This document shows, in pieces, positions 1,369-21,199 of a stretch of DNA of 21,199 nucleotides (the stretch's first letter is position 1; each line of letters begins with the position of its first letter). The stretch lies in IMG/VR virus record IMGVR_UViG_2541047774_000002; one strand, written 5' to 3'. The stretch is from a virus (taxonomy: Duplodnaviria > Heunggongvirae > Uroviricota > Caudoviricetes). The notes under the pieces are model-generated. The model ran no database searches. It was not told the origin of the DNA and worked only from the letters and a program-made list of their open reading frames with translations. Both the position numbers and the translations under genes were made by a program.

Positions 1369-1444
1369 GCCGATATAGCTCAGTTGGTAGAGCAGCGCAT
1401 TCGTAATGCGAAGGTCGTAGGTTCGACTCCTATTATCGGCACCA
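1369..1444 (+). tRNA. thrW: tRNA-Thr, anticodon CGT
   Basis: 76-nt sequence GCCGATATAGCTCAGTTGGTAGAGC...GGTTCGACTCC...CCA; anticodon CGT at tRNA positions 34-36; D-loop and T-loop (GGTTCGA) consensus; encoded 3' CCA. Confidence 0.95.
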
Positions 1445-1461
1445 TTCAAACATCTCCCCAA

Positions 1462-1609: not shown

Positions 1610-2824
1610 GTGAAACTCAATGCCCGTCAAATAGACACAGCCAAGCCAAAAGAGAAGGCTTACAAGCTGGCCGATGGTGGCGGTTTGTATCTCTTGGTAA
1701 AACCTAATGGAGGTAAATACTGGCGACTTAAATATCGTGTAGCTGGTAAAGAGAAGCTATTGGCACTAGGTGTGTATCCTGAGGTTACTCTAGCCGATGC
1801 TCGGGCAAAACGTGAAGATGCGAAAAGAGGTATCGCTGGTGGTATCGATCCGATGGAAGCGAAACGAGAGGAAAAGATTGCCCGGGAAACGCAGTTAAAC
1901 AACACCTTCAAAGATATTGCCCTTGAGTGGCACAGTAGCAAATTAAAAAAATGGTCTGCTGGTTATGCTTCAGACATCCTCGAAGCCTTCAACAAAGATG
2001 TGTTCCCTTACATTGGCAAAAAACCAATCGCCGAAATCAAACCACTTGAACTTCTGAATGTGCTGCGGCGCATCGAGGGGCGAGGTGCTACAGAAAAAGC
2101 CAAAAAAGTGAGGCAGCGGTGCGGGGAAGTTTTCCGCTATGCAATAGTCACTGGTCGCGCAGAGTATAACCCTGCACCAGACCTTACTAGCGCGATGCAA
2201 GGCCATGAATCTAATCATTACCCTTTCCTTACAGCCAAAGAATTACCTGATTTTTTCAAGGCATTGTCCAGTTACTCAGGAAGCGCATTGGTTGTTATGG
2301 CGGCTCGTCTACTGATTATCACCGGCTTGCGAACTGGCGAACTACGTGGCGCATTATGGGATGAAATTGATTTCAACAAGGCTATCTGGGAGATACCCGC
2401 TTCACGTATGAAAATGCGGCGGCCTCATATTGTGCCATTGTCTGAGCAGGCTCTTTCGCTTATTGGGAAGATTAGAGAAATAACAGGCAATTACCCTCTT
2501 ATGTTTCCCGGGCGCAATGATCCAAGGAAAACAATGAGTGAGGCCAGCATAAACCAAGTGTTTAAGCGCATTGGCTACGCTGGACGTGTAACTGGTCATG
2601 GGTTCCGGCACACTATGAGTACGATTTTGCATGAGCAGGGCTATAACACTGCGTGGATAGAAACACAGCTCGCTCACGTTGATAAGAACTCAATTCGTGG
2701 CACATACAACCATGCGCAATATCTGGATGGAAGGCGGGAGATGCTTCAATGGTATGCCGACTATATGGATTCTCTCGAGCATGGCGGAAATGTGGTGCAT
2801 ATGGTGTTTGAAAAACACGCATGA
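1610..2824 (+). CDS. tyrosine integrase, P4-type (N-terminal arm-binding domain plus catalytic core)
   Basis: GTG start with GGAGG about 10 nt upstream; 404 aa; N-terminus LADGGGLYLLVKPNGGKYWRLKYRVAGKEKLLALGVYPEV typical of P4-family integrases; C-terminal HGFRHT and RGTYNHAQY motifs (His-x-x-Arg, Tyr nucleophile); sits next to a tRNA 3' end. Confidence 0.9.
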   Translation: MKLNARQIDTAKPKEKAYKLADGGGLYLLVKPNGGKYWRLKYRVAGKEKLLALGVYPEVTLADARAKREDAKRGIAGGIDPMEAKREEKIARETQLNNTFKDIALEWHSSKLKKWSAGYASDILEAFNKDVFPYIGKKPIAEIKPLELLNVLRRIEGRGATEKAKKVRQRCGEVFRYAIVTGRAEYNPAPDLTSAMQGHESNHYPFLTAKELPDFFKALSSYSGSALVVMAARLLIITGLRTGELRGALWDEIDFNKAIWEIPASRMKMRRPHIVPLSEQALSLIGKIREITGNYPLMFPGRNDPRKTMSEASINQVFKRIGYAGRVTGHGFRHTMSTILHEQGYNTAWIETQLAHVDKNSIRGTYNHAQYLDGRREMLQWYADYMDSLEHGGNVVHMVFEKHA

Positions 2825-3251: not shown

Positions 3252-3455
3252 ATGGCTAATTACAATTCATTAATTCGTCTCTCTGAAGTTCAAAGGCGAA
3301 CTGGTTATAGCAAAGCATGGATTTATCGTCTTATTAGTCAGGGGAGGTTCCCTAAACAGGTAAAAATTGGAAGTCGGGCTATTGCTTTTGTTGAGTCTGA
3401 AATAGATGAATGGATTGAGAAGTGTATATTAGAATCTAGAGACGAGGTGGCCTGA
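3252..3455 (+). CDS. alpA: AlpA-family HTH transcriptional regulator (excisionase-like)
   Basis: 67 aa; LIRLSEVQRRTGYSKAWIYRLISQGRFPKQVKIGSRAIAFVESEIDEWI matches the AlpA/Vis pattern (HTH, then FP-x-P-V-K-I/L-G-x-R-x-x-x-W, then E-x-E-x-W); position after int is typical of P4/PICI-like elements. Confidence 0.8.
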   Translation: MANYNSLIRLSEVQRRTGYSKAWIYRLISQGRFPKQVKIGSRAIAFVESEIDEWIEKCILESRDEVA

Positions 3456-3886: not shown

Positions 3887-3898
3887 CGGAGACTGAAA

Positions 3899-6415: not shown

Positions 6416-6633
6416 CCAACATCCAGCTCATTGAAGCACAATGTCGCATCGAACAGGTTCAGACTGTTTTAGGGTTCTGGCTTGAAGGGGCCAGCCCCAG
6501 CAACAGAGACAAGTTAATGATTGGCGCGGTTATGTCACTGCTCAATGGCGTACCAGAAGCTATTCAGGAAGCAGACGAATTGTTGGGCAAATATGAGTTA
6601 CAGAATCATTCAGGCGAGGCGAAACATGAATAA
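6412..6633 (+). CDS. hypothetical protein (73 aa)
   Basis: ATGA overlap with the upstream gene. Confidence 0.55.
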   Translation: MTNIQLIEAQCRIEQVQTVLGFWLEGASPSNRDKLMIGAVMSLLNGVPEAIQEADELLGKYELQNHSGEAKHE

Positions 6634-7228: not shown

Positions 7229-7238
7229 GGATGGAACC

Positions 7239-7580
7239 ATGATTACTAAAAATTTCCGACTGAATGCGCTGGCAAATAAGTATGCGTCGGCACTGTATAA
7301 CCACATTACCTCCACCAGCGGCGGGGACTATTTCATGGTTGATGCGGACGGCGAGGCCGTCCGTGTGGAAATCGTCAATGGAGTAAAAGGCGTTCGCAGC
7401 CTGATCGATAGCTACACACTAGCAACCATGAAAGTGTTCTACCCGCAGTGGGAAACCGTGGGGATCGAGCTTCTTGATCGTTGCGTCACTAAGGACGGAT
7501 TGACTGACGTTGGGCGCGAGATATGGCAAAGCATGGTTAATGACATGGGCGCAACTGTAGCGGGAGGTTCTCATGCGTGA
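7239..7580 (+). CDS. hypothetical protein (113 aa)
   Basis: ORF with GAGG about 8 nt upstream; same operon. Confidence 0.6.
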   Translation: MITKNFRLNALANKYASALYNHITSTSGGDYFMVDADGEAVRVEIVNGVKGVRSLIDSYTLATMKVFYPQWETVGIELLDRCVTKDGLTDVGREIWQSMVNDMGATVAGGSHA

Positions 7581-7944
7581 AAATGCAGAAATGGCGCTTA
7601 GCTCCGCAATCGGAGAGCAGGTGGCAAAGATTGCTGGTGCTGTGTGGATTCATAACCTTCATTCTACTGGTGAAGAGAAAATGGCAATTCAGACGCCAGA
7701 GGGACGCACCATTACTACATCTCTGAAGCCGTCAGATGTTTGTGATCTGATTTGCGCATTCATGTACCCAGCAATGAGGACTGCCCACGGCGATAAGTGG
7801 AAACTTGCGACAACCGCTGAATTTGATATGTGGCTAAACAATGATGGCATGCTGACTGATTACGGAATAACCAAGTGGCAGATGCTGGTTAGCCATATCG
7901 CAAACGCTATAGACCACGTGGGGTACGGTGATGCGAAACATTGA
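7573..7944 (+). CDS. hypothetical protein (123 aa)
   Basis: Overlaps both neighbours; same operon, immediately upstream of the primase. Confidence 0.6.
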   Translation: MRENAEMALSSAIGEQVAKIAGAVWIHNLHSTGEEKMAIQTPEGRTITTSLKPSDVCDLICAFMYPAMRTAHGDKWKLATTAEFDMWLNNDGMLTDYGITKWQMLVSHIANAIDHVGYGDAKH

Positions 7945-10687
7945 TCTTATCCGTCAGGTTATCAGTGCGTCTGAAAACAACTGGCCTCATGTGCTGGGCT
8001 GCCTGAACATAAATGTCCCTGACTCTCCGCGCCGTCATGCTCCCTGCCCTGCATGTGGGGGCAAAGATCGATTCCGGTTCGATGACAACGGGCGCGGTAG
8101 CTTCATCTGTAATCAGTGCGGCGCTGGTGATGGGCTGGATTTAATTAAACGCGTAAATAACTGCGACACAACAGAGGCGGCGCTTCTTGCCGCTGATGTT
8201 CTGGGTATTGATTACCGGACAACGGAAACACCAGAAGCCACCAGCCAGAAACGGGAACAACTGGAAACCGAGCGCCAGCGACGCGAACAGGAGCGCCTGA
8301 AAAGGGCAGAGAAGGATGAACAACAAAGACGGGATACGTTTTCCCGTCAGTTTGATGACATGCGCAGAAAGGCTGTAAACGGCAAATCTGATTATCTGGT
8401 TGCGAAAGGGGTAGGTGATTTTACATTCCCCGTGTTGCCCGATGGATCTCTGTTGCTGGCGCTGGTGGATAAATCCGGCGCAGTCACAGCAGCACAGACA
8501 ATTACCTCACATGGTGAAAAAAGACTCCTGACAGGTTCAGCAAAGCGGGGGGCATATCACGCCATAAACGCACCAGAAACAACACAGAGCATCTTAATCG
8601 CAGAAGGGCTGGCAACGGCATTATCTGCCCATTTAATTCGTCCAGAGGCGCTGACAGTGGCGGCGATTGATGCCGGGAACCTGTTATATGTCGCCCAGGT
8701 ACTGCGGGATAAATTTCCTTCAGCACAAATTATCATTGCTGCGGATAACGACCACAGCGAAGGAAGACAAAACACGGGGAGAATAGCAGCAGAAAAAGCA
8801 GCTTTATCTGTTTCTGGATGGGTGGCATTACCCCCGACAGATCACAAAGCAGACTGGAATGATTACCACCAAAAACACGGCATTAAATGCGCCACAGAAG
8901 CGTTCAATAAGTCAATGTACCAACCACAGGGTAATGGCGTGAAACAGGAGCCACAGACCATTGAGGGAAGCGATTTTAAGGTTATGGATACCGACCCACT
9001 GAAACCAAGAATAGAAAGCCGCGAGGATGGTATTTATTGGGTATCTCCGAGAGCTGACAGTCAGAGTGGAGAAATCATCAATAACGAAAGCTGGTTATGT
9101 TCTCCGTTAAGCGTTATCGGTACTGGCAGAGACGATAAAGACCAGTATCTCATTCTTCGCTGGCTGTCGTTTGGTTCTGAAACGCCGACAACCGCTGCCA
9201 TTCCACTGGCTGATATTGGTGAACGTGAAGGATGGCGCACACTTAAAGCTGGTGGGGTAAATGTCACGACCAAAAGCAGCCTCAGAGCAATACTGGCAGA
9301 CTGGCTACAACGCAGTGGCTCTCGTGAATTGTGGCGTGTTGCTCATGCCACTGGCTGGCAATGCGGAGCGTACATCATGCCTGATGGGGAAATCATCGGA
9401 ACACCTGAAAATCCTGTGCTGTTCAGCGGGAGAAGCTCAGCCGCAGCCGGATATACCGTCTCAGGGAGCGCGAAAAGCTGGCGTGATAACGTGGCGCGTC
9501 TGGCCTTTGGTAACTATTCAATGATGACCGGGATCGGCGCAGCACTGGCAGCGCCATTGATTGGGCTGGTGGGCGCTGACGGGTTCGGCATTCATTTCTA
9601 TGAGCAGTCGAGCGCAGGTAAGACCACCACGGCAAACGTGGCGAGCAGCTTATACGGCAACCCTGATTTACTGCGGCTGACGTGGTACGGAACCGCGCTG
9701 GGGCTGGCAAATGAAGCTGCCGCCCACAATGACGGACTAATGCCGCTTGATGAAGTTGGTCAGGGCGCTGATCCTGTCAGTGTTTCACAGTCTGCCTATG
9801 CGTTATTTAACGGTGTAGGGAAACTGCAAGGCGCTAAAGATGGTGGAAACCGGGATCTAAAACGCTGGCGTACAGTGGCAATCAGCACCGGAGAAATGGA
9901 TTTAGAAACATTTATCGCTACTTCCGGGCGAAAAACCAAAGCCGGGCAACTGGTGCGACTGCTGAATATTCCGTTGAGTAAAGCAGTACGCTTTCACGAT
10001 TACCAGAACGGAAAACAGCACGCAGACGCACTGAAAGACGCTTACCAGCATCACCACGGCGCAGCCGGGCGTGAGTGGATTAAATGGCTGACAGACCACC
10101 AGCAACAGGCAATTAAAACTGTTCGTGACTGCGAAAGCAGATGGAGAAGTCTGATCCCATCCGATTATGGTGAGCAGGTTCACCGTGTAGCCGCGCGATT
10201 TGCCATTCTGGAGGCCGCATTGCTGTTAGGCGAGGTTGTAACAGGCTGGGATGCTCAGACATGCCGTGATGCGATACAGCACAGCTATAACGCATGGTTG
10301 CGCGAGTTCGGCACAGGTAACAAAGAGCATCAGCAGATTATTGAACAAACGGAGGCATTTCTTAATGCCTATGGGCTTAGCCGTTTTGCACCATTTCCAT
10401 ACAGCCCGGCAGATTTGCCCATCAAAGATTTAGCCGGATACCGTCAGCGTGGAGAACATGACGAAAGCCCAATGATTTTCTACACATTCCCGGCCACATT
10501 TGAAAAGGAGATCGCATGTGGTTTCAACGCAAAACAGTTTGCTGAAGTGTTGAAAAAAGCCGGGATGCTAACCCCACCAAACAGCGGTCGTGGATACCAA
10601 AGAAAATCACCACGTATTCAGGGACGACAAATAAACGTTTATGTACTCAATTACCAGCCAGGAGATTATAACTCATCTGAAGAATGA
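7928..10687 (+). CDS. replicative primase-helicase (zinc-ribbon + Toprim + P-loop NTPase), P4-alpha/PICI-Pri-like
   Basis: 919 aa; N-terminal Cys4 motif CPACGG...CNQCG; Toprim-like acidic motif IIIAADNDHSEG; Walker A EQSSAGKTT and Walker-B-like GLMPLDEVGQ in the C-terminal half; followed directly by iterons. Confidence 0.9.
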   Translation: MMRNIDLIRQVISASENNWPHVLGCLNINVPDSPRRHAPCPACGGKDRFRFDDNGRGSFICNQCGAGDGLDLIKRVNNCDTTEAALLAADVLGIDYRTTETPEATSQKREQLETERQRREQERLKRAEKDEQQRRDTFSRQFDDMRRKAVNGKSDYLVAKGVGDFTFPVLPDGSLLLALVDKSGAVTAAQTITSHGEKRLLTGSAKRGAYHAINAPETTQSILIAEGLATALSAHLIRPEALTVAAIDAGNLLYVAQVLRDKFPSAQIIIAADNDHSEGRQNTGRIAAEKAALSVSGWVALPPTDHKADWNDYHQKHGIKCATEAFNKSMYQPQGNGVKQEPQTIEGSDFKVMDTDPLKPRIESREDGIYWVSPRADSQSGEIINNESWLCSPLSVIGTGRDDKDQYLILRWLSFGSETPTTAAIPLADIGEREGWRTLKAGGVNVTTKSSLRAILADWLQRSGSRELWRVAHATGWQCGAYIMPDGEIIGTPENPVLFSGRSSAAAGYTVSGSAKSWRDNVARLAFGNYSMMTGIGAALAAPLIGLVGADGFGIHFYEQSSAGKTTTANVASSLYGNPDLLRLTWYGTALGLANEAAAHNDGLMPLDEVGQGADPVSVSQSAYALFNGVGKLQGAKDGGNRDLKRWRTVAISTGEMDLETFIATSGRKTKAGQLVRLLNIPLSKAVRFHDYQNGKQHADALKDAYQHHHGAAGREWIKWLTDHQQQAIKTVRDCESRWRSLIPSDYGEQVHRVAARFAILEAALLLGEVVTGWDAQTCRDAIQHSYNAWLREFGTGNKEHQQIIEQTEAFLNAYGLSRFAPFPYSPADLPIKDLAGYRQRGEHDESPMIFYTFPATFEKEIACGFNAKQFAEVLKKAGMLTPPNSGRGYQRKSPRIQGRQINVYVLNYQPGDYNSSEE

Positions 10688-10712
10688 GCTTCTTCATGTG
10701 CGTAGAAAAGGT

Positions 10713-10823
10713 GTTGGTTCAGTTGGTTCAGTTGGTTCAATTTGTAAATAGTATTGTTTTATAAGGATTTTATTCTTTTTATTGAACCAACACTGAACCA
10801 ACAACACGGTATTTTGAACCAAC
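10713..10823. repeat. iteron cluster / putative replication origin: 3 tandem GTTGGTTCA (10713-10739), AT-rich spacer, 3 inverted TGAACCAAC (10783-10791, 10794-10802, 10815-10823)
   Basis: Repeats counted directly; iterons flanking an AT-rich core directly downstream of a primase-helicase gene is standard satellite/plasmid origin architecture. Confidence 0.6.
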
Positions 10824-10873
10824 ACAATGTGACTGAATTGATGCGCACAACACCTGGCTGGCATCAGAGAGTG

Positions 10874-10950
10874 TTTTACGAGACTTTCGTAAAATCCTGT
10901 GTACAAGGGCGTGACGTTTTTGAAAGTGGGCACTACGAAATTTTCGTAGT
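10874..10950. promoter_or_regulatory. two related palindromes: TTTTACGA-n5-TCGTAAAA (10874-10894) and perfect 19-bp ACTACGAAA-T-TTTCGTAGT (10932-10950); candidate operator pair
   Basis: Shared TACGA(A/G)A...TTTCGTA half-sites about 40 bp apart; neither is followed by a T-run, so they are more likely protein-binding sites than terminators. Confidence 0.35.
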
Positions 10951-11143
10951 TCAAAAAACAGCCTCTGAGAAGTTGTTATGCCTGTTCAGCAAACCATCCA
11001 CATAGCTGATCGCGAATCAAATTACCAATGGAGCCAGAAGCAAGGGCAGAACTGAAAAGCGCCTGCCGTGAAGAGTAATGCGACACCATAAATATAGTTT
11101 TTAGAGTCCATAAAAAACCTGTCAAAACCTGACACACAGAACG

Positions 11144-11177
11144 ATGCCACCAGCTACTGAGCGGTGGCATTTTTTTG
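11144..11177 (+). terminator. rho-independent terminator (ATGCCACC-loop-GGTGGCAT then TTTTTT)
   Basis: Perfect 8-bp stem, 11-nt loop, 6-7 T on the + strand; separates the replication module from the downstream operon. Confidence 0.6.
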
Positions 11178-11271
11178 TGCTATTTGTTTCATATTTTGCA
11201 ATTACGATGATGAATATTGCGATTTGTGAAACTATAATAACTGTTGTTTTATACAGTTCTAAGGGGGCGTT

Positions 11272-11433
11272 ATGGCTATTTCAGTAAAGCCGGTATTGAT
11301 AAGTGAGAAGCAAATGGAAGCGATAAAGAAAATTCAGGAAGAGCAGCGTAAAAAATCAGGAATTGGAGTAGCGCCAACTCTGCATGAAATTGCACGAGGG
11401 TTAATAGATAAGGCGCTGGCAGGCTGTATGTGA
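11272..11433 (+). CDS. small protein (53 aa), possible small DNA-binding regulator
   Basis: Not in the ORF track (under 60 aa). ATG 5 nt after AAGGGGG; translation read by hand: MAISVKPVLISEKQMEAIKKIQEEQRKKSGIGVAPTLHEIARGLIDKALAGCM; stop 16 nt before the next gene; sits right after an AT-rich promoter-like region. Confidence 0.4.
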   Translation: MAISVKPVLISEKQMEAIKKIQEEQRKKSGIGVAPTLHEIARGLIDKALAGCM

Positions 11434-11449
11434 AAATGGATGGCATCGC

Positions 11450-11911
11450 ATGGAACTAAAATTTATTGATAACCCTGTGCGATTACAGGCCTTTCTTAAC
11501 GAGCCAGGCAATACCGAAAATATTGTTGAGCCGGGGCACACGTACTACATCAAGCCTGATGCGGTATATCTCGGCATCTACGAAGGATTAGTGCTGGCTG
11601 GCGTTCATGAAGTGCGTAACTTCTGGCATAGCGTTGTTGAATGCCATGCGGTGTACGACCCCGGATTCCGTGGTGAATATGCACTGCAAGGGCATCGATT
11701 ATTCTGCAAATGGCTTCTCGAAAACTCACCATTCCTTAACAGCATCACTATGGTTCCTGACACCACGAAATATGGACGGGCAATTATCCGTTTGCTTGGC
11801 GCTACCCGTGTTGGTCACCTTGATGATGCTTATATCAGATGTGGTAAACCCGTCGGCGTAACGCTTTATCAGTTAACTCGGCAACAATATAAGGAATTCA
11901 GCGAATGTTAA
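11450..11911 (+). CDS. hypothetical protein (153 aa); possible accessory protein of an ejection-protein module (P22 gp14-like position)
   Basis: Normal globular composition; stop overlaps the start of the 699-aa gene (ATGTTAA); the positional assignment is inference only. Confidence 0.7.
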   Translation: MELKFIDNPVRLQAFLNEPGNTENIVEPGHTYYIKPDAVYLGIYEGLVLAGVHEVRNFWHSVVECHAVYDPGFRGEYALQGHRLFCKWLLENSPFLNSITMVPDTTKYGRAIIRLLGATRVGHLDDAYIRCGKPVGVTLYQLTRQQYKEFSEC

Positions 11912-14004
11912 TTACCCATATAGCTCATAAACATCTCAATCGTGCCGTATACGAAAAAGGCGGTGATGGTGGTGCCTCTAAAGCTCAGGCGAAGGCCCAG
12001 CAGCAGGCAATTGATTTGCAGCGCGAGCAGTGGAATACGGTGATGAATAATCTCAAGCCGTATGCAGAAGTCGGATTGCCTGCTTTACAACAACTGCAAG
12101 GACTGATGACTCTGGAAGGGCAGAATAAAGCCGCGAATGATTTCTTTGGTTCTGGTTTATATAAAACACAGGCAGATCAGGCCCGTTATCAGAACCTTGT
12201 CTCAGCAGAAGCTACCGGGGGGCTTGGCTCAACAGCTACCAGTAACCAGTTATCTTCCATTGCGCCCATGCTTTATAACAATTGGCTCAGTGGGCAAATG
12301 CAAAATTATGGAAACCTGCTAAATGTCGGGATGAATGCGGCATCAGGGCAGGCAACAGCAGGGCAAAACTACGCCAATAATACCGGGCAACTCTTGCAGG
12401 GGCTTGGCGCTATTCGTGCAGGTCAGGCGCAGCAGCCATCCAGTCTTGCGCGTGGTATTGGTGGGGCGGCATCAGGCGCTTTAGCGGGTGCGCAACTTGG
12501 TTCCGTTGTTCCGGGTATAGGTAATGTCGCCGGGGCTATTGGTGGTGGGCTTATTGGTCTTGTTGGGGGGGCTTGGATTCTAATGGCGACATGGCAACTT
12601 GGCGGGCTGCCTAGCATGGCACCGCAAAATGATAATGCTCCTCGTTCTTCCGTTCCTCAGCCTGTGCAGTATCAGCAGCACCCAAACGTAGGTTTAATGG
12701 CGCTACAGGGGCTAAGAGGCGTTGCTGAGATTAATCAGCAGGCACGTCAACAACAGCGTAAAGCAGAGTTTCAGAAAGCATATGCCGGGGCTTTTGAGTC
12801 TGGAGACAGAAACAAAATGCGCAGTCTTATTTCTGAGTATCCAGAAGAATTTGAAAGCGTTCAGAAAGGGATGGGCTTTATTGATGACGACCAGAGAAAT
12901 TCTATTGGTCATCTTGCGACTAGTGCTCAAATCGCATCTTCGCTCGGAACTGGGGCATTTGGAAAATTCATAGCAGATAACGAAGATGAAATGCGTCGCT
13001 TGGGAATTTCTCCTGAGTCTGTTGCCGAAATGCATGTTAATGATCCACAGGGATTCCAGCGGCTTGCTGGTAGTATGGCACTGTTTTCTCTCGGTCATGA
13101 GAAGTATTTCGATATCAAAGATCAAATGGAAGGTCGGGATATTGAGCGTGGCAAGTTGGCAGAGACAATCCGCAGCAATCAGGCTGGCGAAGCACTTCAG
13201 GCGAGAGGGCAGGATATTAGCCGAGCAAATGCGTTAACGTCAGCATATGCACCAACAGCAGCAATGCAGAATTACAATCAGTACGCTCAAATGTTAAAGG
13301 CGGATCCAGAGGGGGCGGCGGCATTTGCGGCAGCGGCTGGAATTAATACAAACGCCAAAAAATTAATGAGTGTTAGAGAAAACGATGATGGCACTGTCAC
13401 AAAATACTACACAGACGGAAGTGAAGAGCAGGGAAAACTAAACCAGCCAATATCTGGAGATGGGTTTCGTCCAATAGCTTTGCCAACAGCCCAAAAGATC
13501 ATGGAAAAGTCGCCAGAAGGGGCTAAAAAAGCTGCTGGATTTGCATACAGGGTTAGGGATGCTCTTGATTCAATAGATACACTGAAAGACCAGCTTAGCC
13601 CACAGCGAGTGGCGATCATTAATAATGCTTTGGGTAATGGGACGCTGGCTAACTTAACGCTCAGCCCAACAGAGCAGCAATACGTTGTTAATGCTAATGA
13701 CGCAATAATGGCAATACTCCGTCAGGAAACAGGGGCAGCTATCGCACCTGCTGAAATGTCAAAATATTATCAAATGTATTTCCCTCAGCCTGGCGACTCC
13801 ACAAAAACCATTGATACCAAGCGCCGGAAGATGGAAAACCAGTTCAATTCGCTGAAAGCTGCTTCTGGTCGAGCTTATGATGCTTTGCGGGTTATTTCAG
13901 CAGTTGACAGAGGAACTTCTTCTTCGTCGCAGACATTGCCGCAATCTGAGCAGGTATCACAGCCAGCAGCCAGCAGTAACTTTTCTTCACTATGGGGTGA
14001 TTAA
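11905..14004 (+). CDS. large low-complexity protein (699 aa); candidate phage ejection / internal-virion (DNA-transfer) protein
   Basis: N-terminal EKGGDGG followed by a Q/A-rich coiled-coil-like stretch; Q/N/G/A-rich low-complexity region; glycine-zipper hydrophobic segment GSVVPGIGNVAGAIGGGLIGLVGGAWILMATW; essentially no Cys; translationally coupled on both sides. Confidence 0.75.
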   Translation: MLITHIAHKHLNRAVYEKGGDGGASKAQAKAQQQAIDLQREQWNTVMNNLKPYAEVGLPALQQLQGLMTLEGQNKAANDFFGSGLYKTQADQARYQNLVSAEATGGLGSTATSNQLSSIAPMLYNNWLSGQMQNYGNLLNVGMNAASGQATAGQNYANNTGQLLQGLGAIRAGQAQQPSSLARGIGGAASGALAGAQLGSVVPGIGNVAGAIGGGLIGLVGGAWILMATWQLGGLPSMAPQNDNAPRSSVPQPVQYQQHPNVGLMALQGLRGVAEINQQARQQQRKAEFQKAYAGAFESGDRNKMRSLISEYPEEFESVQKGMGFIDDDQRNSIGHLATSAQIASSLGTGAFGKFIADNEDEMRRLGISPESVAEMHVNDPQGFQRLAGSMALFSLGHEKYFDIKDQMEGRDIERGKLAETIRSNQAGEALQARGQDISRANALTSAYAPTAAMQNYNQYAQMLKADPEGAAAFAAAAGINTNAKKLMSVRENDDGTVTKYYTDGSEEQGKLNQPISGDGFRPIALPTAQKIMEKSPEGAKKAAGFAYRVRDALDSIDTLKDQLSPQRVAIINNALGNGTLANLTLSPTEQQYVVNANDAIMAILRQETGAAIAPAEMSKYYQMYFPQPGDSTKTIDTKRRKMENQFNSLKAASGRAYDALRVISAVDRGTSSSSQTLPQSEQVSQPAASSNFSSLWGD

Positions 14005-16109
14005 TGGCTAAAGCATGGAAAGATGTTATCGCCTCTCCACAGTATCAGGCGTTAGCACCAGAACAAAAAGCGCAGGCTCAGGAGCAATACTTCAATGAAG
14101 TCGTTGCCCCGCAAGCCGGAGAAAGTGTAGAGCAGGCTAAGCAGGCTTTTTATGCTGCCTATCCACTACCATCAACGAATGAAATAGACCGATCCCAATC
14201 AGCAACTCAAAATATTCAACATACATCATCTGATAATTCTCTTGCGTCAGGGTATGCAAAGTTAGCTACTCAGCAAAGAGAGGGGCTTGAGCGTTCAGCA
14301 GAACAGGGAGCCAGTCTTGGGGCTGCGATGCGCGATGCTATAACAGGCGAAAGCCGAATGACTCCAGAGATGGAGAGACTGCAAAATGTCACCTCTGCCC
14401 CAGAATTGAACTCACTAAGCATGGATGCCCTAAAGGCTGGATGGTCTCAACTTTTCGGCTCTGACGCGTCTCAGGAAAAGATTCTTCAGGGAATGGGGGC
14501 GACATTAAGGCAGGATGAGAAGGGGAATACTATCGTTTCTCTGCCATCAGGTGATTATGCCCTGAACAAGCCGGGTTTATCACCGCAAGACCTGACTTCG
14601 TTTCTTGCTAATGCGTTGGCGTTTACACCAGTGGGCAGGGCTGGAACGGTGCTTGGTGCCATAGGAAAATCAGCAGCTACAGATTTAGCACTACAGGGAG
14701 CCACCAGCCTTGCTGGTGGAGAAGATATTGATCCGTTACAAACGGTAATTTCTGCTGGCATTGGTGGTATTGGTAAGGGGCTGGAAAATACAGCGAGTGC
14801 GGTTTCGAGGGCTGTTCGTGGTGATATGTCGCCTGAAGCAAAGGCTGCTGTCGACTTTGCATCGGAAAGAAATCTGCCGTTAATGACCAGTGACATGCTG
14901 AAAGATAAAACCTTTATGCAGAGTCAGGCTCAGACATTAGGCGAAAGAGTTCCTTTTTTTGGAACCGGTAAGAATCGGCTGAATCAACAACAAGCACGAG
15001 AAAATTTAGTCAGAACATTTAGCGATGGTCTGGGTGGCATTTCTGATAAACAGCTTTATGAATCTGCGACTAAAGGGCAACAAAAATTCATTGAGGCAGC
15101 AGGAAAGCGATATAACCGCATAATTGACGCTATGGGGGATACCCCTGTCGATCTCTCAAACACGGTAAAAGCTATCGACAATCAGATTGCCGTGTTAAGC
15201 CGCCCGGGCAAATCTCAGGATAGAGCCGCGGTAAAAGTCTTGCAGCAATTTAAAGACGATATCACCAGCGGACCAAATGACCTGCGTCTGGCGAGGGAAA
15301 ACAGAACCGATCTTCGAAAGCGATTTATGGCGTCATCTGACACTGTTGATAAAGATACGCTCCAGAAAGCCAGCGATATTATCTACAAGGCATATACGGC
15401 GGATATGAAAAAAGCCGTAGCCAAAAATCTTGGAGCAGACGAAGCCATTAATATGGCAAGGGTTGATCGCTCATGGTCTAAATTCAATGACATGATGGGA
15501 AGAACGCGCGTTCAAAAGGCAATAGCCAGCGGCAAGGCCACGCCTGAGGATGTAACAAAACTCGTTTTTAGCCAAAGCCCATCAGAACGTTCTCAGCTTT
15601 ACAGGCTTCTGGATGACAATGGTAGGCAAAACGCACGAGCAGCCATAGTTCAGAATGCTGTAGATAAGGCGACTGATCCGTCTGGAAATATCAGTGTTGA
15701 GAAGTTTATTAATGCGTTACACCGGAACAGGAAGCAATCAGCAACTTTCTTTAAAGGCGTACATGGAAAGGAACTGGACGGCGTTATTAAATACCTCAAC
15801 GATACAAGACACGCGGCAAAAGCGAACGTTCAAAACTTAAATGGTCAGCAGCTTTATGGATTGTTAGTTGGTGGTGGCATCATAAACGCAGCAGTATTAG
15901 CGGGGATGCTAAAAACGGCTGCGTTTGTTGTTCCTGCTGCTGGTGCCGTAGGCGGAGCAGCGAAGGCATACGAAAGCCCTGTTATACGAAATGCCTTGTT
16001 ACGTCTGGCAAATACGCCAAAAGGTAGCACAGCATATGACAGAGCGATCAGTACGGTCACACAATCGCTCACCAGAGTCGCACAGGCATCACAAAAAGAA
16101 GCTCAATAA
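14004..16109 (+). CDS. large low-complexity protein (701 aa); candidate phage ejection / internal-virion protein
   Basis: TAATG overlap with the upstream gene; A/Q/K/S/G-rich, largely helical-looking; C-terminal Gly/Ala-rich hydrophobic segment LLVGGGIINAAVLAGMLKTAAFVVPAAGAVGGAAKA; no Cys; followed by a terminator. Confidence 0.75.
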   Translation: MAKAWKDVIASPQYQALAPEQKAQAQEQYFNEVVAPQAGESVEQAKQAFYAAYPLPSTNEIDRSQSATQNIQHTSSDNSLASGYAKLATQQREGLERSAEQGASLGAAMRDAITGESRMTPEMERLQNVTSAPELNSLSMDALKAGWSQLFGSDASQEKILQGMGATLRQDEKGNTIVSLPSGDYALNKPGLSPQDLTSFLANALAFTPVGRAGTVLGAIGKSAATDLALQGATSLAGGEDIDPLQTVISAGIGGIGKGLENTASAVSRAVRGDMSPEAKAAVDFASERNLPLMTSDMLKDKTFMQSQAQTLGERVPFFGTGKNRLNQQQARENLVRTFSDGLGGISDKQLYESATKGQQKFIEAAGKRYNRIIDAMGDTPVDLSNTVKAIDNQIAVLSRPGKSQDRAAVKVLQQFKDDITSGPNDLRLARENRTDLRKRFMASSDTVDKDTLQKASDIIYKAYTADMKKAVAKNLGADEAINMARVDRSWSKFNDMMGRTRVQKAIASGKATPEDVTKLVFSQSPSERSQLYRLLDDNGRQNARAAIVQNAVDKATDPSGNISVEKFINALHRNRKQSATFFKGVHGKELDGVIKYLNDTRHAAKANVQNLNGQQLYGLLVGGGIINAAVLAGMLKTAAFVVPAAGAVGGAAKAYESPVIRNALLRLANTPKGSTAYDRAISTVTQSLTRVAQASQKEAQ

Positions 16110-16113
16110 CTGG

Positions 16114-16137
16114 TTAGCCATGGATGGCTAATTTTTG
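16114..16137 (+). terminator. rho-independent terminator (TTAGCC-atggat-GGCTAA then TTTTTG) in the 18-bp gap between convergent genes
   Basis: 6-8 bp stem followed by a T-run on the + strand; the stop codon of the convergent minus-strand gene lies inside the hairpin. Confidence 0.5.
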
Positions 16138-16487
16138 TTCTTTGCTCTCATCCATAGGTAAAGAAGGGAAAGAACAAGACAAAAAACAGAGAATAGATAA
16201 CCTACCTCATATGGTGCGCCAAAAAAATTAGCTATTGATACGGGCAAAAAAGCTGAGGCGATCAAAATTGAAAGGCAAAAAATAAGCCCAGTAATATAGT
16301 TTATTAAATTCTTAAATGAGAAACGTTTTGCTTGATTTACGGTCTTAACGAACGATCGCTTAACGACGGATAAAAGCAAATAGATGGCGACAGTTGCTAA
16401 TGCCCCTTTCCACCAGTCTGGATATAGTTTTGCGACAATCAGACCAAGGAAAACCGTAAGCGTAAACTGACCGCCGTATGTAGCCAT
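16128..16487 (-). CDS. small integral membrane protein (3-4 predicted TM helices); 5' end interrupted by the IS66-family insertion
   Basis: Hydrophobic segments ALATVAIYLLLSVV, ITGLIFCLSILIASAFLPV, VGYLFSVFCLVLSLLYLWM; the first 11 codons of the track ORF (16456-16487) lie inside the IS left inverted repeat, so the native gene continues beyond the IS (see findings). Confidence 0.5.
   Translation of the reverse strand: MATYGGQFTLTVFLGLIVAKLYPDWWKGALATVAIYLLLSVVKRSFVKTVNQAKRFSFKNLINYITGLIFCLSILIASAFLPVSIANFFGAPYEVGYLFSVFCLVLSLLYLWMRAKNKN
16448..16455. repeat. target-site duplication GGAAAACC (left copy)
   Basis: 8 bp immediately outside the IS left end, identical to 18988-18995. Confidence 0.8.
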
Positions 16488-16540
16488 CAGACGAGAATTG
16501 GTAACTTAGACGCCCATCTGATATAGACGGACATCTAAGT

Positions 16541-16966
16541 ATGGAATTACAGGACTGGCGAAAAGAACCTCGTAAAAACTATTCGAATGAATTCAAACTT
16601 CGTATGGTGGAACTGGCATCACAACCTGGAGCTTGTGTTGCACAGATTGCACGTGAAAATGGCGTCAATGATAATGTTATTTTCAAATGGCTCAGGCTCT
16701 GGCAGAACGAAGGGCGTGTTTCGCGGCGTCTTCCGGTAACGACCTCTTCTGACACTGGCGTTGAATTATTACCTGTAGAAATAACGCCGGATGAGCAGAA
16801 AGAACCTGTGGCGGCCATTGCGCCGTCTTTATCCACTTCCACTCAGACCAGAGTCAGTGCCAGTTCCTGCAAGGTGGAATTCCGTCACGGTAACATGACG
16901 CTGGAAAATCCATCGCCAGAGCTGCTCACAGTGTTGATCCGTGAACTGACCGGGAGGGGAAGATGA
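16541..16966 (+). CDS. IS66-family accessory protein TnpA (orf1)
   Basis: 141 aa; N-terminal HTH-like region; stop overlaps the tnpB start (ATGA). Confidence 0.85.
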   Translation: MELQDWRKEPRKNYSNEFKLRMVELASQPGACVAQIARENGVNDNVIFKWLRLWQNEGRVSRRLPVTTSSDTGVELLPVEITPDEQKEPVAAIAPSLSTSTQTRVSASSCKVEFRHGNMTLENPSPELLTVLIRELTGRGR

Positions 16967-17313
16967 TCTCACTCCCATCAGGTACCCGTATCTGGCTCGT
17001 TGCCGGCGTTACCGATATGCGTAAATCCTTCAACGGACTGGGAGAACAGGTACAACATGTGCTGAATGATAATCCCTTCTCCGGTCACCTGTTTATCTTC
17101 CGTGGCCGACGGGGTGACACCGTCAAAATTCTTTGGGCTGATGCTGATGGTCTGTGCCTGTTCACCAAACGCCTGGAGGAAGGCCAGTTTATCTGGCCTG
17201 CGGTACGTGACGGCAAGGTATCCATTACCCGCTCGCAACTGGCAATGCTCCTCGATAAGCTGGACTGGCGTCAGCCAAAAACATCCAGCCGTAACTCACT
17301 GACAATGTTGTAA
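16963..17313 (+). CDS. IS66-family Orf2 / TnpB
   Basis: 116 aa; sequence recognised as the IS66 Orf2 family (LPSGTRIWLVAGVTDMRKSFNGL...); size and position typical. Confidence 0.9.
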   Translation: MISLPSGTRIWLVAGVTDMRKSFNGLGEQVQHVLNDNPFSGHLFIFRGRRGDTVKILWADADGLCLFTKRLEEGQFIWPAVRDGKVSITRSQLAMLLDKLDWRQPKTSSRNSLTML

Positions 17314-17343
17314 AAAACTCCTGACCGCATTATAAAAACGGTC

Positions 17344-18957
17344 ATGAGTCAGAAATACCTCATTCGCATCGCAGAGCTGGAAAGGTTGCTCTCTGAGCAG
17401 GCTGAAGCCCTCCGTCAGAAAGACCAGCAACTGAGTCTGGTTGAAGAGACGGAAGCCTTCCTGCGCTCTGCACTGACACGTGCCGAAGAAAAGATCGAAG
17501 AAGATGAACGGGAAATAGAACATCTGCGGGCTCAGATAGAAAAACTGCGCCGGATGCTGTTCGGTACCCGTTCTGAAAAACTGCGTCGTGAAGTTGAACT
17601 GGCTGAGGCTCTGCTGAAACAACGTGAACAGGACAGCGATCGTTACAGTGGGCGGGAAGACGATCCTCAGGTTCCCCGCCAGTTGCGACAGTCGCGCCAT
17701 CGTCGTCCGTTACCGGCACACCTTCCCCGTGAAATACACCGCCTGGAGCCAGAAGAAAGCTGTTGCCCGGAGTGTGGCGGTGAGCTGGATTATCTGGGGG
17801 AAGTCAGCGCTGAACAGCTGGAACTGGTGAGCAGTGCCCTGAAAGTGATCCGCACAGAACGGGTAAAAAAAGCCTGTACAAAATGTGACTGTATTGTTGA
17901 AGCACCGGCGCCGTCCCGCCCGATAGAGCGTGGTATCGCGGGCCCCGGATTACTTGCCCGCGTGTTAACGGGAAAATACTGCGAACATCTGCCACTGTAT
18001 CGTCAGAGTGAAATCTTTGCCCGCCAGGGTGTCGAACTGAGCCGGGCCTTACTCTCCAACTGGGTTGACGCGTACTGCCAGTTAATGACACCGGTGAATG
18101 ATGCCCTGTACCGTTATGTAATGAACACCCGCAAGGTTCACACTGATGACACACCGGTAAAGGTACTGGCACCGGGTCAGAAAAAGGCGAAAACAGGGCG
18201 TATCTGGACGTATGTCCGGGATGATCGCAATGTGGGTTCGTCATCTCCTCCAGCGGTCTGGTTCGCGTACTCGCCGAACCGGCAGGGGAAACACCCGGAG
18301 CAACACCTCCGCCCCTTCCGGGGTATCCTGCAGGCGGATGCGTTCACAGGTTACGACAGGTTGTTCAGTGCAGAACGTGAAGGTGGTGCACTGACAGAAG
18401 TTGCGTGCTGGGCCCATGCCCGGCGAAAAATCCACGATGTATACATCAGCAGCAAAAGTGCGACGGCAGAAGAAGCCCTGAAGCGAATCAGTGAACTGTA
18501 CGCCATCGAGGATGAAATACGGGGATTACCGGAGTCAGAGCGTCTTGCCGTCAGGCAGCAGCGAAGCAAAGTGTTACTGACGTCGCTGCATGAATGGATG
18601 GTGGAGAAGAATGGTACGCTGTCGAAAAAATCCAGACTGGGCGAAGCGTTCAGCTATGTACTGAATCAGTGGGATGCCCTCTGTTATTACAGTGATGACG
18701 GTCTGGCGGAGGCGGATAATAATGCTGCGGAAAGAGCGCTTCGTGCAGTCTGTCTCGGAAAGAAAAACTTTATGTTCTTTGGCAGCGATCACGGCGGCGA
18801 GCGTGGAGCACTGTTGTACGGGCTGATCGGCACCTGCCGTCTGAACGGTATCGATCCGGAAGCGTATCTGCGCCATATCCTGAGCGTACTGCCGGAATGG
18901 CCTTCCAACCGAGTTGACGAACTCCTGCCATGGAACGTAGTACTCACCAATAAATAA
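17344..18957 (+). CDS. IS66-family transposase TnpC
   Basis: 537 aa; N-terminal coiled-coil/leucine-zipper region; zinc-finger CCPECGG...CTKCD; C-terminal DDE-type catalytic region; stop abuts the right inverted repeat. Confidence 0.9.
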   Translation: MSQKYLIRIAELERLLSEQAEALRQKDQQLSLVEETEAFLRSALTRAEEKIEEDEREIEHLRAQIEKLRRMLFGTRSEKLRREVELAEALLKQREQDSDRYSGREDDPQVPRQLRQSRHRRPLPAHLPREIHRLEPEESCCPECGGELDYLGEVSAEQLELVSSALKVIRTERVKKACTKCDCIVEAPAPSRPIERGIAGPGLLARVLTGKYCEHLPLYRQSEIFARQGVELSRALLSNWVDAYCQLMTPVNDALYRYVMNTRKVHTDDTPVKVLAPGQKKAKTGRIWTYVRDDRNVGSSSPPAVWFAYSPNRQGKHPEQHLRPFRGILQADAFTGYDRLFSAEREGGALTEVACWAHARRKIHDVYISSKSATAEEALKRISELYAIEDEIRGLPESERLAVRQQRSKVLLTSLHEWMVEKNGTLSKKSRLGEAFSYVLNQWDALCYYSDDGLAEADNNAAERALRAVCLGKKNFMFFGSDHGGERGALLYGLIGTCRLNGIDPEAYLRHILSVLPEWPSNRVDELLPWNVVLTNK

Positions 18958-18987
18958 GCGTCAATACGGTGCTCCGTTGACGCTTAC

Positions 18988-18995
18988 GGAAAACC
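18988..18995. repeat. target-site duplication GGAAAACC (right copy)
   Basis: 8 bp immediately outside the IS right end, identical to 16448-16455. Confidence 0.8.
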
Positions 18996-19037
18996 ATGAT
19001 GACAGCCTGAGCATTCACACCAACCCTCCCTTTAGCT

Positions 19038-19418
19038 TTGTTTAGAATGGCAATCATCATATATCCAAGACATGGCATTTGGTACATAGCTTGGGTCGGG
19101 ATTTCAAATCCGATCCCCGTTGATGGGGCCGTTACAGTACGCGCATATCCGCTTTATGTGAAACAGGAAGATTTTTCTGATATCACTGCCACAGCAAAAC
19201 ACCAATTTCGAGACAAGTACGCGCGCGAGGGGTATCAGTTGCAAAAAATTTTGCAACTACGTCCGACCAGTATGCACACGATGGCGGGGGGATACCATAA
19301 AACTGTTCTCTACATGAGACAGAGTGGTGGTGATGTGTTGATTATCGACGTATATGCGCACAGGACGCGCTATGACGATGTTTTATGCGGGTACACCAAT
19401 CACATGTATCTGGTGTGA
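19038..19418 (+). CDS. questionable hypothetical ORF (126 aa)
   Basis: Track ORF only; no clear SD; its 5' part overlaps the reconstructed upstream region of the IS-interrupted membrane gene on the opposite strand; may be a gene fragment or non-coding. Confidence 0.25.
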   Translation: MFRMAIIIYPRHGIWYIAWVGISNPIPVDGAVTVRAYPLYVKQEDFSDITATAKHQFRDKYAREGYQLQKILQLRPTSMHTMAGGYHKTVLYMRQSGGDVLIIDVYAHRTRYDDVLCGYTNHMYLV

Positions 19419-20051
19419 TAAATCGCGTTACATGACCTCTCATGTTGTACTGGTGGTTATCACGACGTTCTGAATCTGGCCTTTGCCTGGTATTTTGCGA
19501 CAAGTACGCGCGCGTAGCATCGAAATAATCGGATGGCGTATGCTGCTGGTAATATGAAGACCGATAGCATTAACCGTAAGGAGAAAGACTTCTCGATAAC
19601 GGCAAGGGGGCTGAATTGCGAGGCGAGATTAAGCAACTGTCTTGAACGTAAAAATCATGGAGCAACATGATGGTACGATTCATTCCATTCTTCGTTCTTT
19701 CTGAGCATTGCGTTCAGGCTTAGTCAAAATTAGTGTTGCGAGCGGACCTATTAGTAATTGTTGGTGCGATGCGTCTGTTATGGATTGTTATGGTTGTGGC
19801 AGGCCTGATTAATATCCAGTATGACCACCAGCTATGAGAGGCCACCTCAGTGGTTCGCAGTTGCAGGTTTGCACTCAGGTTCGCAGGGTTTTGGCTACTT
19901 TCACGTGCGAACCTGCAGAATTGCAAAGGACAACTAAGTCCTCTGGTCAACTCCCGGTTTATGAGCGACACAGTCCGCCTGGCGCATCGTTTTCGTCGAG
20001 CGCGCCCATCAGCTTGTCCATGGACTATCCACCACTCGATATTAAAGCTAA

Positions 20052-20237
20052 TCATTGGTTGCCAGCCCGCGAATCAAGTTTGTTCTGGATCCAAGCTTCA
20101 ACCTCCTCAAGCGACCATCTAGCTGATCTACCAATTTTAACTGGCTGTGGAAACGTGCCCGTCTTAACCCATGAGTAGATTGCCGTTTTCTTGAAGCCCG
20201 TTCTGAGCATGACTTCGCTTAATTTGATAAGGCGCAT
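20052..20237 (-). CDS. alpA: AlpA-family HTH regulator / excisionase-like (second copy, opposite strand)
   Basis: 61 aa; IKLSEVMLRTGFKKTAIYSWVKTGTFPQPVKIGRSARWSLEEVEAWI matches the AlpA pattern; no integrase or primase adjacent, so it looks like a remnant of a second element. Confidence 0.75.
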   Translation of the reverse strand: MRLIKLSEVMLRTGFKKTAIYSWVKTGTFPQPVKIGRSARWSLEEVEAWIQNKLDSRAGNQ

Positions 20238-20487
20238 AGAGGCTCCTCTGCTTTAGATTAAGCATAGTGACAATCTGGCTTTGGGTGGTATCCAAAAGCG
20301 AGGTATCCATGTTGGTATCCACCAAAACGCTGTTTACCAAAAAGTTACCACCGGAACAGGACATTTTGAGCTGTAACTTAACACATAGCATATGGAGTTC
20401 ACGCATAGACTTCACGCACAACGGCTCTGGCCAGTGAAGAATCACCCTGGCTGGCAATATAATGCCGATCACCATCAGAGGGGAATC

Positions 20488-20680
20488 CATGACACCACGA
20501 GAAATCGAGCTGCTGACCATTGCCAAGCTGGAGCATGGCGGCCACCAGCTCAGCCCGGCAGAACTGCGGGAATTAAGGCGCCAGCTGGCAGAGGGCCCTG
20601 TAATAGCCAGGCGGTACCGCGAAATGATGACCAGCCCCGCATATCGCTGGAGCAAACCAGCGCCGCTCCGTGCGCGGTGA
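20488..20680 (+). CDS. small hypothetical protein (63 aa, Arg-rich)
   Basis: In-frame ATG inside the track ORF 20462-20680 with GAGGGG about 8 nt upstream; function unknown. Confidence 0.4.
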
Positions 20681-20754
20681 GCAGCACCTAACCAGCACTA
20701 GACAAGCCCTGTGCTGGTGGATGTCCCTCATAATTAGCGGTTTTTAAACGGCGT

Positions 20755-20875
20755 GTTGGTTCACGGCCTCTTTTTGTTGGTTCAAAAATGGGGTGTGTTG
20801 GTTCACTTTTTGCGAATAATTCTTTTAAAAACAATACTCTTTACAAATTGAACCAACTGAACCAACTGAACCAAC
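20755..20875. repeat. second iteron cluster, inverted relative to 10713-10823: 3 spaced GTTGGTTCA (20755-20763, 20776-20784, 20797-20805), AT-rich spacer, 3 tandem TGAACCAAC (20849-20875)
   Basis: Repeats counted directly; 20841-20885 is nearly the exact reverse complement of 10701-10745. Confidence 0.6.
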
Positions 20876-20911
20876 ACCTTTTTGCTTATCTATATAGTCT
20901 GAGAGGCAGAA

Positions 20912-21199
20912 ATGATAAGGGACAGGAAAGCTGAAGATCTGGAGTCAAAAGGGCTATACCGGAGAGCTGCCGCACGATGGGCAGAAGTCATGATGCTGGC
21001 AGATGGCGATAAAGAACGTGAACATGCAGCAAACAGACGCTCTGAATGTATCCGTAAGGCGGCACGCCAACCAGCAACTACAGACAGATTCGGAGATTTA
21101 AGACAGGCAGTTAAGCGAACTCATTCGGCTCTTGGTATGGATGAGGAAGCGAGAGGGTACTTCAGGCGTTATCGCGATAAAGATTGCCAGAGACAGTAA
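20912..21199 (+). CDS. PerC-like small transcriptional regulator (tentative)
   Basis: 95 aa ending at the window edge with a TAA stop; N-terminus MIRDRKAEDLESKGLYRRAAARWAEVM resembles PerC-family proteins of enterobacterial prophages; assignment from memory. Confidence 0.5.
   Translation: MIRDRKAEDLESKGLYRRAAARWAEVMMLADGDKEREHAANRRSECIRKAARQPATTDRFGDLRQAVKRTHSALGMDEEARGYFRRYRDKDCQRQ

Follow-up and report, generated by a model that had tools for sequence, protein, structure and literature searches.

Two inverted iteron clusters 10 kb apart as the probable arms of one replication origin in an EcCIMP1-type phage-inducible chromosomal island

The 21,199-nt stretch of DNA analysed here (hereafter the window; IMG/VR virus record IMGVR_UViG_2541047774_000002, Caudoviricetes) carries two clusters of short repeats, or iterons, placed about 10 kb apart in opposite orientation, only one of which adjoins a primase-helicase gene. 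The question raised by this locus is whether the two clusters serve one replicon or two, and what the distant cluster does. A preliminary description had proposed, from the sequence alone, a pair of origin regions resembling ori and crr of P4, with a second, degraded satellite or an inversion switch as alternatives. To judge by its gene content and attachment site, the window is one EcCIMP1-type phage-inducible chromosomal island (PICI), integrated at tRNA-Thr next to proA. We conclude, with a probability of roughly 0.7, that the two clusters are the two arms of this island's own replication origin, pulled apart by cargo genes and an IS66 element, and to this extent the first-pass structural inference holds up. 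Islands of the EcCIMP1 type and the PICI type of origin were already known; what is new is the split layout recurring across enterobacteria. In the searchable literature we found no description of a split paired-arm origin, of its spread in Enterobacterales, of a cargo slot or of the specificity motif reported below.

Twelve exact copies of GTTGGTTCA are present in the window, all confined to 10713-10823 and 20755-20875; 0.18 copies would be expected by chance, and none of 100 dinucleotide-preserving shuffles reached 12. Both clusters have the same architecture: three copies run head to tail at a period of 9 bp, then come a spacer of 43 bp and, on the opposite strand, three copies that are spaced. 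This agrees with the three copies, AT-rich core and three copies of the preliminary description. A+T content is 86% in the proximal spacer (the one next to the primase gene) and 79% in the distal one, against 51% for the whole window. The phasing of the spaced copies differs, their starts being 11 and 21 bp apart at the proximal locus and 21 and 21 bp apart at the distal one. The 43-mer AAAAGGTGTTGGTTCAGTTGGTTCAGTTGGTTCAATTTGTAAA at 10706-10748 has its exact reverse complement at 20840-20882, and this perfect repeat is enclosed in a 65-nt inverted repeat (arms 10706-10770 and 20818-20882) that is 92% complementary. The near identity of the inverted clusters is thus confirmed, with the earlier coordinates about 5 nt off. 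The tight, head-to-tail arrays of the two clusters are mutually inverted, the arms are separated by 10,109 bp, including a 2,535-bp IS66-family element, and the primase-helicase gene (7928-10687) does adjoin the first cluster only.

The published counterpart of the island is EcCIMP1 of E. coli MP1, 99.0% identical to the window over 108-12743 and 98.4% over 19093-20995. EcCIMP1 is located at tRNA-Thr between proA and yagU, and excises as a 19,963-bp circle, whose junctions (attP) were sequenced, only if the P22-like helper phage Kapi1 is present; Kapi1 both induces and transduces it (Pick, Stadel & Raivio, ISME J 2025, PMC11773190). The MP1 sequence holds both iteron clusters within the published limits of EcCIMP1, and the same two-cluster island occupies a further chromosomal site as well, next to dinD/yicG. 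Because the EcCIMP1 circle holds both clusters and the same layout is found at dinD/yicG, the two clusters belong to a single mobile element. The EcCIMP1 paper (PMC11773190) makes no mention of an origin or of iterons, and a search of helper phage Kapi1 for the iteron returned 0 copies. The window and EcCIMP1 share the att site and the backbone (int, alpA, AntA, Ash, DUF927 primase, DNA-transfer genes, the inverted alpA_1 and PerC), whereas the window differs by another gp20/gp16 allele, another PerC 3′ end, the IS66 insertion and a one-base gp7-gp20 frameshift. Induction, excision and packaging by the helper are published for EcCIMP1; the window copy carries the IS66 element and the frameshift. 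At least 80% of the window is present at the same site in 69 complete E. coli genomes.

How general the two-cluster layout is was addressed with 77 loci encoding relatives of the primase, taken from species-representative genomes, in which repeated words were sought just past the primase stop codon. Iterons were found there in almost all loci. Pairing was scored by a script in 62 loci with related primases, and inverted tight arrays were paired in at least 31 of the 62, a count to be read as a lower bound since the 10 loci left unclassified by the script are mostly compact origins with a degenerate middle unit. The compact arrangement was seen in at least 19 loci, several more being missed by the script. 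There, the tight arrays lie 202-375 bp apart, in the order head-to-tail array, AT-rich spacer, inverted spaced iterons, CCTGGCTGG, more spaced iterons and inverted second array. The split arrangement was found in 12 loci including the window, with variable cargo between arms 1.1-10.1 kb apart (1.1, 2.3, 4.8, 5.8, 6.9, 7.2, 7.6, 8.5, 8.6, 8.8, 9.0 and 10.1 kb). Compact and split forms are homologous in the sequence that borders the distal tight array on its outside (ACCTTTTTGCTTAT..TATATA), and in several lineages the proximal arm is followed by the CCTGGCTGG motif, in compact as well as in split origins. In the PICI EcCICFT073, whose pri-ori segment drives plasmid replication (PMC6092414), the origin is likewise bounded by inverted tight arrays (12011-12028 and 12219-12236, 190 bp between), but these have a different word, CTRTCTACC, and the primase is unrelated. 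As compact relatives, split relatives and EcCICFT073 share this bounded layout, the clusters of the window are best read as the two arms of a normally single origin region. The proposal of one replicon whose inter-origin segment was expanded by cargo and IS66 is supported by this origin of about 250 bp in many relatives, and by the single circle formed by EcCIMP1.

In the distal arms of 11 loci from several genera, identity to the window was 93% in iteron columns, 63% in the other columns of the cluster and 46% in the flanks; the corresponding values for the proximal arm were 99%, 64% and 48%. The distal spaced iterons have their own phasing, and the spacer sequences are unrelated to those of the proximal arm, so that their conservation cannot be due to copying from the proximal arm. 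We take the conservation of iterons amid diverged spacers, across genera, as evidence of probable selection on the distal arm. Moreover, in 13 of 13 loci whose arms are separated by over 300 bp (L052, with 374 bp, and the 12 split loci) the distal spacer is 75-88% A+T and ends with TCTTTACAAAT. One Erwinia island (L065, 3988-4050) has seven head-to-tail iterons in its proximal array instead of three, which indicates that the tight array can expand.

The protein expected to read these repeats is the Pri-Rep primase-helicase. Six iteron words were found in the lineages with a DUF927 helicase half, GTTGGTTCA, GTTGTCTCA, GTCGGTTCA, ACGGGTTAY, ACTTATCCC and GTGGGTTAT, and in every paired locus both arms carry the identical word. 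The word co-varies with a short motif located some 25 residues before the C-terminal end of the primase: GTTGGTTCA goes with GRGYQRKS-PRIxGRQ, GTTGTCTCA with GRGYQGRV--REDGRQ, ACGGGTTAY with DRLKKKALKKMGGKQ, and GTCGGTTCA with KGVTRKT-LRIDGKQ in 4 of 5 loci, the fifth (L025) having GRGYQRKT-PRIDGRQ. Apart from this motif, the GTTGTCTCA group is about 90% identical to the GTTGGTTCA group in the neighbouring helicase region. This short motif is the predicted determinant of iteron specificity. In Reps of Staphylococcus aureus pathogenicity islands (SaPIs) the C-terminal domain reads the iterons, and one hexamer is likely loaded at each flank of the AT-rich stretch (Qiao et al. 2022, PMC9371898). 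By analogy with these Reps, and because word and motif co-vary, we infer that the Pri-Rep of the island binds both arms through its C-terminal recognition motif.

The enzyme itself is modular. Its N-terminal primase domain is 33% identical to P4 alpha over about 350 aa (BLASTP, E 2e-41), and BLASTP found no similarity to P4 alpha beyond residue ~360. The C-terminal, helicase half is of the DUF927 type and has its nearest solved relatives in 8tch_A, a staphylococcal ‘Pathogenicity island protein’ (E 6e-12), and in 5dgk, the SCCmec helicase. The island of E. coli SCU-306 has a primase whose C-terminal half is of another type, DUF5906. The iteron word of that module is ACCTRTACCA, and its two clusters, again inverted and separated by about 1 kb, bracket two ORFs (open reading frames). 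The N-terminal primase domain of SCU-306 is 86% identical to that of the window despite the different helicase half (L005 3516-5867 compared to window 7928-10687), and the DUF927 half is also found joined to other N-termini (loci L053-L068); the origin travels with the C-terminal half.

A canonical PICI or SaPI origin lies immediately 3′ of rep and consists of an AT-rich region flanked by iterons that point in opposite directions (PMC6092414, PMC9371898), and each cluster of the window fits this opposed-iteron design. The initiator is also similar, a self-loading helicase with a C-terminal recognition domain. The difference lies in the arms, which are 7.6-10.1 kb apart here, with genes between and an AT-rich spacer in each. 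The likeness to P4 ori/crr is structural. In the annotated P4 record, the region directly 3′ of alpha is crr (4291-4590), two direct repeats of 120 bp that contain type-1 iterons; the ori repeats (9310-9413) are 4.7 kb from crr, and each region has its tight arrays inverted relative to those of the other. P4 alpha binds both ori and crr, and both are needed in cis. Shared with P4 are thus a single word in two regions kilobases apart on a small circular replicon, inverted tight arrays of about 9-10 bp period, one region directly 3′ of the primase-helicase gene, and a homologous Zn-ribbon/Toprim primase domain (33% identity). The order on the excised circle, distal arm, PerC-att-int-alpA...pri-rep, proximal arm, echoes the ori-operon-crr order of P4. 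On the other hand, the primase-adjacent region of P4 is crr, made of two direct 120-bp repeats, and the P4-type (D5/DUF5906) helicase and origin-binding half is absent here, replaced by DUF927, which is SaPI Rep- or MCM-like. The comparison with P4 made earlier therefore stands for two inverted, same-word regions kilobases apart, and does not stand for the identity of the primase-adjacent cluster or for the helicase type. With this reservation, the island is, in its predicted organisation, one replicon with a split double origin, arranged much like P4 ori/crr. Initiator-binding clusters split by one or several genes, and thought to loop or pair, are also known from the bipartite chromosomal origin of Helicobacter pylori (oriC1/oriC2) and from plasmid control iterons (P1 incC/incA and F incB/incC). 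The initiators there are DnaA, RepA and RepE, the control iterons have no unwinding element and the spacing is fixed, in contrast to the variable cargo slot of the present island family.

These elements can be assembled into a tentative mechanism. The layout of many relatives is a pair of arms about 200 bp apart, directly 3′ of pri-rep, with the outer triplets facing each other. In the lineage of the window, cargo lies between the arms: P22-like ejection genes, an excisionase-like gene and, in this window, the IS66 element. Pri-Rep would bind both arms through its C-terminal motif, and each arm, with its opposed iterons around an AT-rich spacer, could undergo the melting and helicase loading that have been put forward for SaPI/PICI origins. 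In that case the distal arm would act in cis in replication of the excised circle, either as the partner of the proximal arm by protein-mediated looping, as in P4 ori/crr, or as a second initiation site.

Several observations weigh against this scheme. The distal spacer is GC-rich (32-40% A+T) in 8 compact loci, so that melting at the distal arm is not plausible in every locus. In 20 related loci only the proximal cluster was seen within at most 10 kb downstream, most right ends not being reached; attR mapping in these 20 loci found few right ends, as the att cores are too short. SCU-306, with its swapped replication module, keeps the GTTGGTTCA arm beside PerC with one mutated unit only; a distal arm can therefore outlast its cognate primase for a while, or it may have another use. 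O111 strains keep a distal arm in a rearranged remnant. Taken together, SCU-306, the O111 remnant and the 20 loci in which only the proximal cluster was seen speak against the distal arm being strictly required. The O111 remnant (L084, E. coli O111 11128, ~12600-15300) is an inverted fragment of the right end of the island among IS (insertion sequence) elements at the thrW site, with the membrane gene, alpA_1, distal arm, PerC and downstream genes.

If it had another use, the distal cluster might be a control or operator site. Primase-helicase bound at it would pair with the proximal arm and so restrict copy number, by handcuffing like P1 incA or F incC, or would regulate the divergent neighbour genes, PerC on one side and minus-strand genes on the other. 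Its position in a divergent intergenic region agrees with this, as do a minus-strand ORF of ~150 aa starting ~100 bp away in 7 relatives, a conserved TTTTGCTTAT(C)TATATA stretch past the tight array, ~30 bp before the PerC start codon, and the persistence of the cluster in the island with a swapped primase. However, a consensus scan detected no sigma-70 promoter at either cluster, which leaves the operator idea without support from the sequence, the neighbour genes vary between lineages when the distal arm is constant, and the full origin layout with AT-rich spacer is present in the distal arm of 13 of 13 split loci (L052 included). A control array of the P1 incA type has no unwinding element, whereas the distal arm of the window has a 79% A+T spacer with iterons on both sides. 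We consider a pure control site unlikely. Less likely still is a distal cluster without function, a copy of the origin kept similar to the proximal arm only by occasional gene conversion. Some exchange between arms may well occur: the two 55-nt arms of ETEC1747 show 100% identity, with a private A-to-G change in the middle unit common to both, which points to occasional gene conversion, and a Serratia locus also has a middle-unit variant common to both arms. Conversion tracts nevertheless do not explain the distal spaced iterons, which have 21/21-bp phasing and unrelated spacers and are conserved across genera.

The two alternatives raised at the outset fared poorly. An origin of a second, degraded satellite in inverted orientation could be suspected from the second AlpA-like gene nearby on the minus strand, and a second primase just beyond the window would have been expected. 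According to PMC11773190, which remarks on the odd second alpA at the far end of EcCIMP1, this gene resembles the excisionase of the helper phage. In two annotated relatives PerC is followed, after ~0.5 kb, by an attR copy of the tRNA end (TTCCTATTATCGCACCA), then by a LysR fragment and paoD; the island of the relatives thus ends ~0.5 kb past the window, in attR and chromosomal genes, and no primase is found there. In addition, both clusters are inside the experimentally mapped EcCIMP1 circle (PMC11773190), and the same pair of arrays exists without cargo in 19 loci. A second satellite was rejected, as the flanks of relatives hold only PerC, attR and chromosomal genes, and we give it very little probability. 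The same low probability applies to a recombination switch that would invert the 10-kb cargo segment. Inverted repeats (43 nt perfect, 65 nt at 92%) and signs of exchange between arms are indeed present, but Pfam scans of the window revealed no invertase gene. A 1,039-nt query for the predicted inversion junction gave no match covering at least 80% in 5,426 complete E. coli genomes, 509 of which carry parts of it. Inversion of the cargo is consequently not a fixed or common state, and the earlier proposal gains no support.

A bolder version of the split-origin reading is that the inter-arm gap is a dedicated cargo slot, that the arms cooperate over up to 10 kb by looping and that the distal arm is essential for replication. 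Different genera would have repeatedly placed helper-derived P22-type ejection, tape-measure and transglycosylase genes between the arms and, if this were true, the cargo would lie inside the replication initiation loop. We hold this version to be possible, though doubtful. In other genera the inter-arm segment includes a tape-measure protein, an SLT transglycosylase protein, an SSB (single-stranded DNA-binding protein) and a ProQ/FinO protein (L024 14632-18042; L023 14448-16250 and 12984-13867), and it seems that satellites of this family gather DNA-delivery proteins from their helpers.

PICIs are widespread and drive gene transfer; their origin has so far been treated as a single short site beside pri-rep. 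The present analysis suggests that in a large enterobacterial PICI lineage the origin is a pair of inverted arms, separable by kilobases without loss, between which cargo accumulates. Paired arms then provide a sequence signature by which islands of this kind, and the cargo in them, can be delimited, and EcCIMP1 with Kapi1 is an available genetic system for asking whether the distal arm is a second origin, an enhancer resembling P4 crr or a control site. Should only the ordinary reading be true, the outcome is a solid annotation, that of one satellite with a duplicated origin arm rather than two elements. Features of the window are listed in Table 1.

Table 1. Features of the 21,199-nt window discussed in the text, in order of position
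Feature	Coordinates	Strand	Basis or remark
tRNA-Thr (CGT); 3′ end is the left attachment site, core TCCTATTATC	1369..1444	+	att core from PMC11773190; attR in L002
Tyrosine integrase	1610..2824	+	Pfam Phage_integrase, Arm-DNA-bind_3, Phage_int_M
AlpA-type helix-turn-helix regulator	3252..3455	+	annotation in relatives, tblastn, PMC11773190
Pri-Rep primase-helicase, 919 aa	7928..10687	+	Zn-ribbon, Toprim, DUF927; C-terminal motif GRGYQRKSPRIQGRQ
Arm 1 of 65-nt inverted repeat	10706..10770	none	repeat search
Proximal arm, 3 head-to-tail GTTGGTTCA iterons	10713..10739	+	word search
Proximal arm, AT-rich spacer (86% A+T), presumed unwinding site	10740..10782	none	composition
Proximal arm, 3 spaced iterons (10783, 10794, 10815)	10783..10823	-	word search
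CCTGGCTGG motif, after proximal arm, where the cargo of the window begins	10853..10861	+	seen in several lineages
P22-like DNA-transfer (ejection) cargo: DUF2824, gp7+gp20 fusion, gp16-like	11450..16109	+	Pfam; Lederbergvirus similarity including helper Kapi1
IS66-family insertion sequence, 3 ORFs	16454..18988	+	8-bp target duplication GGAAAACC at 16446-16453 / 18989-18996
Second AlpA/excisionase-like gene (alpA_1 of EcCIMP1)	20052..20237	-	Pfam Phage_AlpA, PHROG excisionase families, PMC11773190
Distal arm, 3 spaced iterons (20755, 20776, 20797; 21-bp phasing)	20755..20805	+	word search
Distal arm, AT-rich spacer (79% A+T), end TCTTTACAAAT conserved across genera	20806..20848	none	composition, alignment
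Arm 2 of 65-nt inverted repeat	20818..20882	none	repeat search
Distal arm, 3 head-to-tail iterons, inverted relative to 10713-10739	20849..20875	-	word search
PerC-family regulator, last gene before attR	20912..21199	+	Pfam; annotation in relatives

In most respects the gene content corresponds to that used to define Gram-negative PICIs (Fillol-Salom et al. 2018). The int gene is at one end, adjoining a specific tRNA-Thr att site, an AlpA-type regulator is downstream of int, and core transcription is rightward, all core ORFs being on the plus strand. Iteron sets at 10713-10739 and 10783-10823, flanking the 86% A+T spacer, follow the end of pri-rep at 10687. The definition further asks for a lack of phage structural or lysis genes; capsid, tail and lysis genes are absent from the island, but 3-4 homologues of P22 ejection (virion-internal) proteins are present. 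The left edge of the window consists of proA and tRNA-Thr; AntA, Ash and small ORFs come after the AlpA-like regulator, and a small membrane-protein gene lies on the minus strand between the ejection cargo and the IS66 element. The helix-turn-helix gene at 3252-3455 is 47% identical to the Pfam-confirmed AlpA at 20052-20237; in EcCIMP1 the AlpA-type regulator is the master activator (PMC11773190). A search for phage matches in 18990-20760 of the window gave none that was meaningful.

Some short motifs surround the proximal arm. A conserved CATGTGCGTAG-like motif, shared by most lineages, lies between the primase stop codon and the first iteron (window 10694-10705). The motif that follows the arm, in the form CTGGCTGG (window 10853-10861), spans differing iteron words and even another helicase type; further sites are at 6016-6027 and 6087-6098 of L005 and in compact origins (e.g. 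L007, ~12975), and in 2 Serratia loci it extends into a Chi sequence (GCTGGTGG). The palindrome CTACGAAATTTTCGTAG is found at 10932-10950, ~110 bp past the proximal arm, and two similar palindromes (ACGAAAATTTCGTAG) lie between PerC and attR of the relative L002 (~21790-21850). These palindromes may be a candidate binding site for a regulator of the island.

Next to the distal arm, a 72-aa plus-strand ORF (20462-20680) lies just inside the arm and is related at the protein level to ORFs in islands of Cedecea, Serratia, Rosenbergiella and Pantoea. At this location RefSeq has a 45-aa ORF on the minus strand instead; the plus-strand ORF is probably the real gene there. The ~150-aa minus-strand ORF mentioned above, from which the window is free, is conserved in 7 islands of several genera (L004 13423-13878 on the minus strand, with equivalents in L005, L023, L024, L029, L063 and L064). 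Neither ORF has a Pfam match, and PHROGs gave only families of unknown function.

Within the cargo, a run of 7 G is present at 12565-12571 where two close relatives have 6 G. The extra G fuses the gp7-like and gp20-like ejection genes into a 699-aa ORF (11905-14004), and corresponds either to a real frameshift or to a homopolymer sequencing error. The cargo at 11450-16109 and the right end of a P22-like genome are colinear (DUF2824, gp7, gp20, gp16, then the minus-strand membrane gene), and the counterparts of the cargo and of the excisionase-like gene in Kapi1 (L086) are at 27948-32582 and 91-291. Together they look like a captured piece of a helper-type phage from which the tailspike-to-int region was removed.

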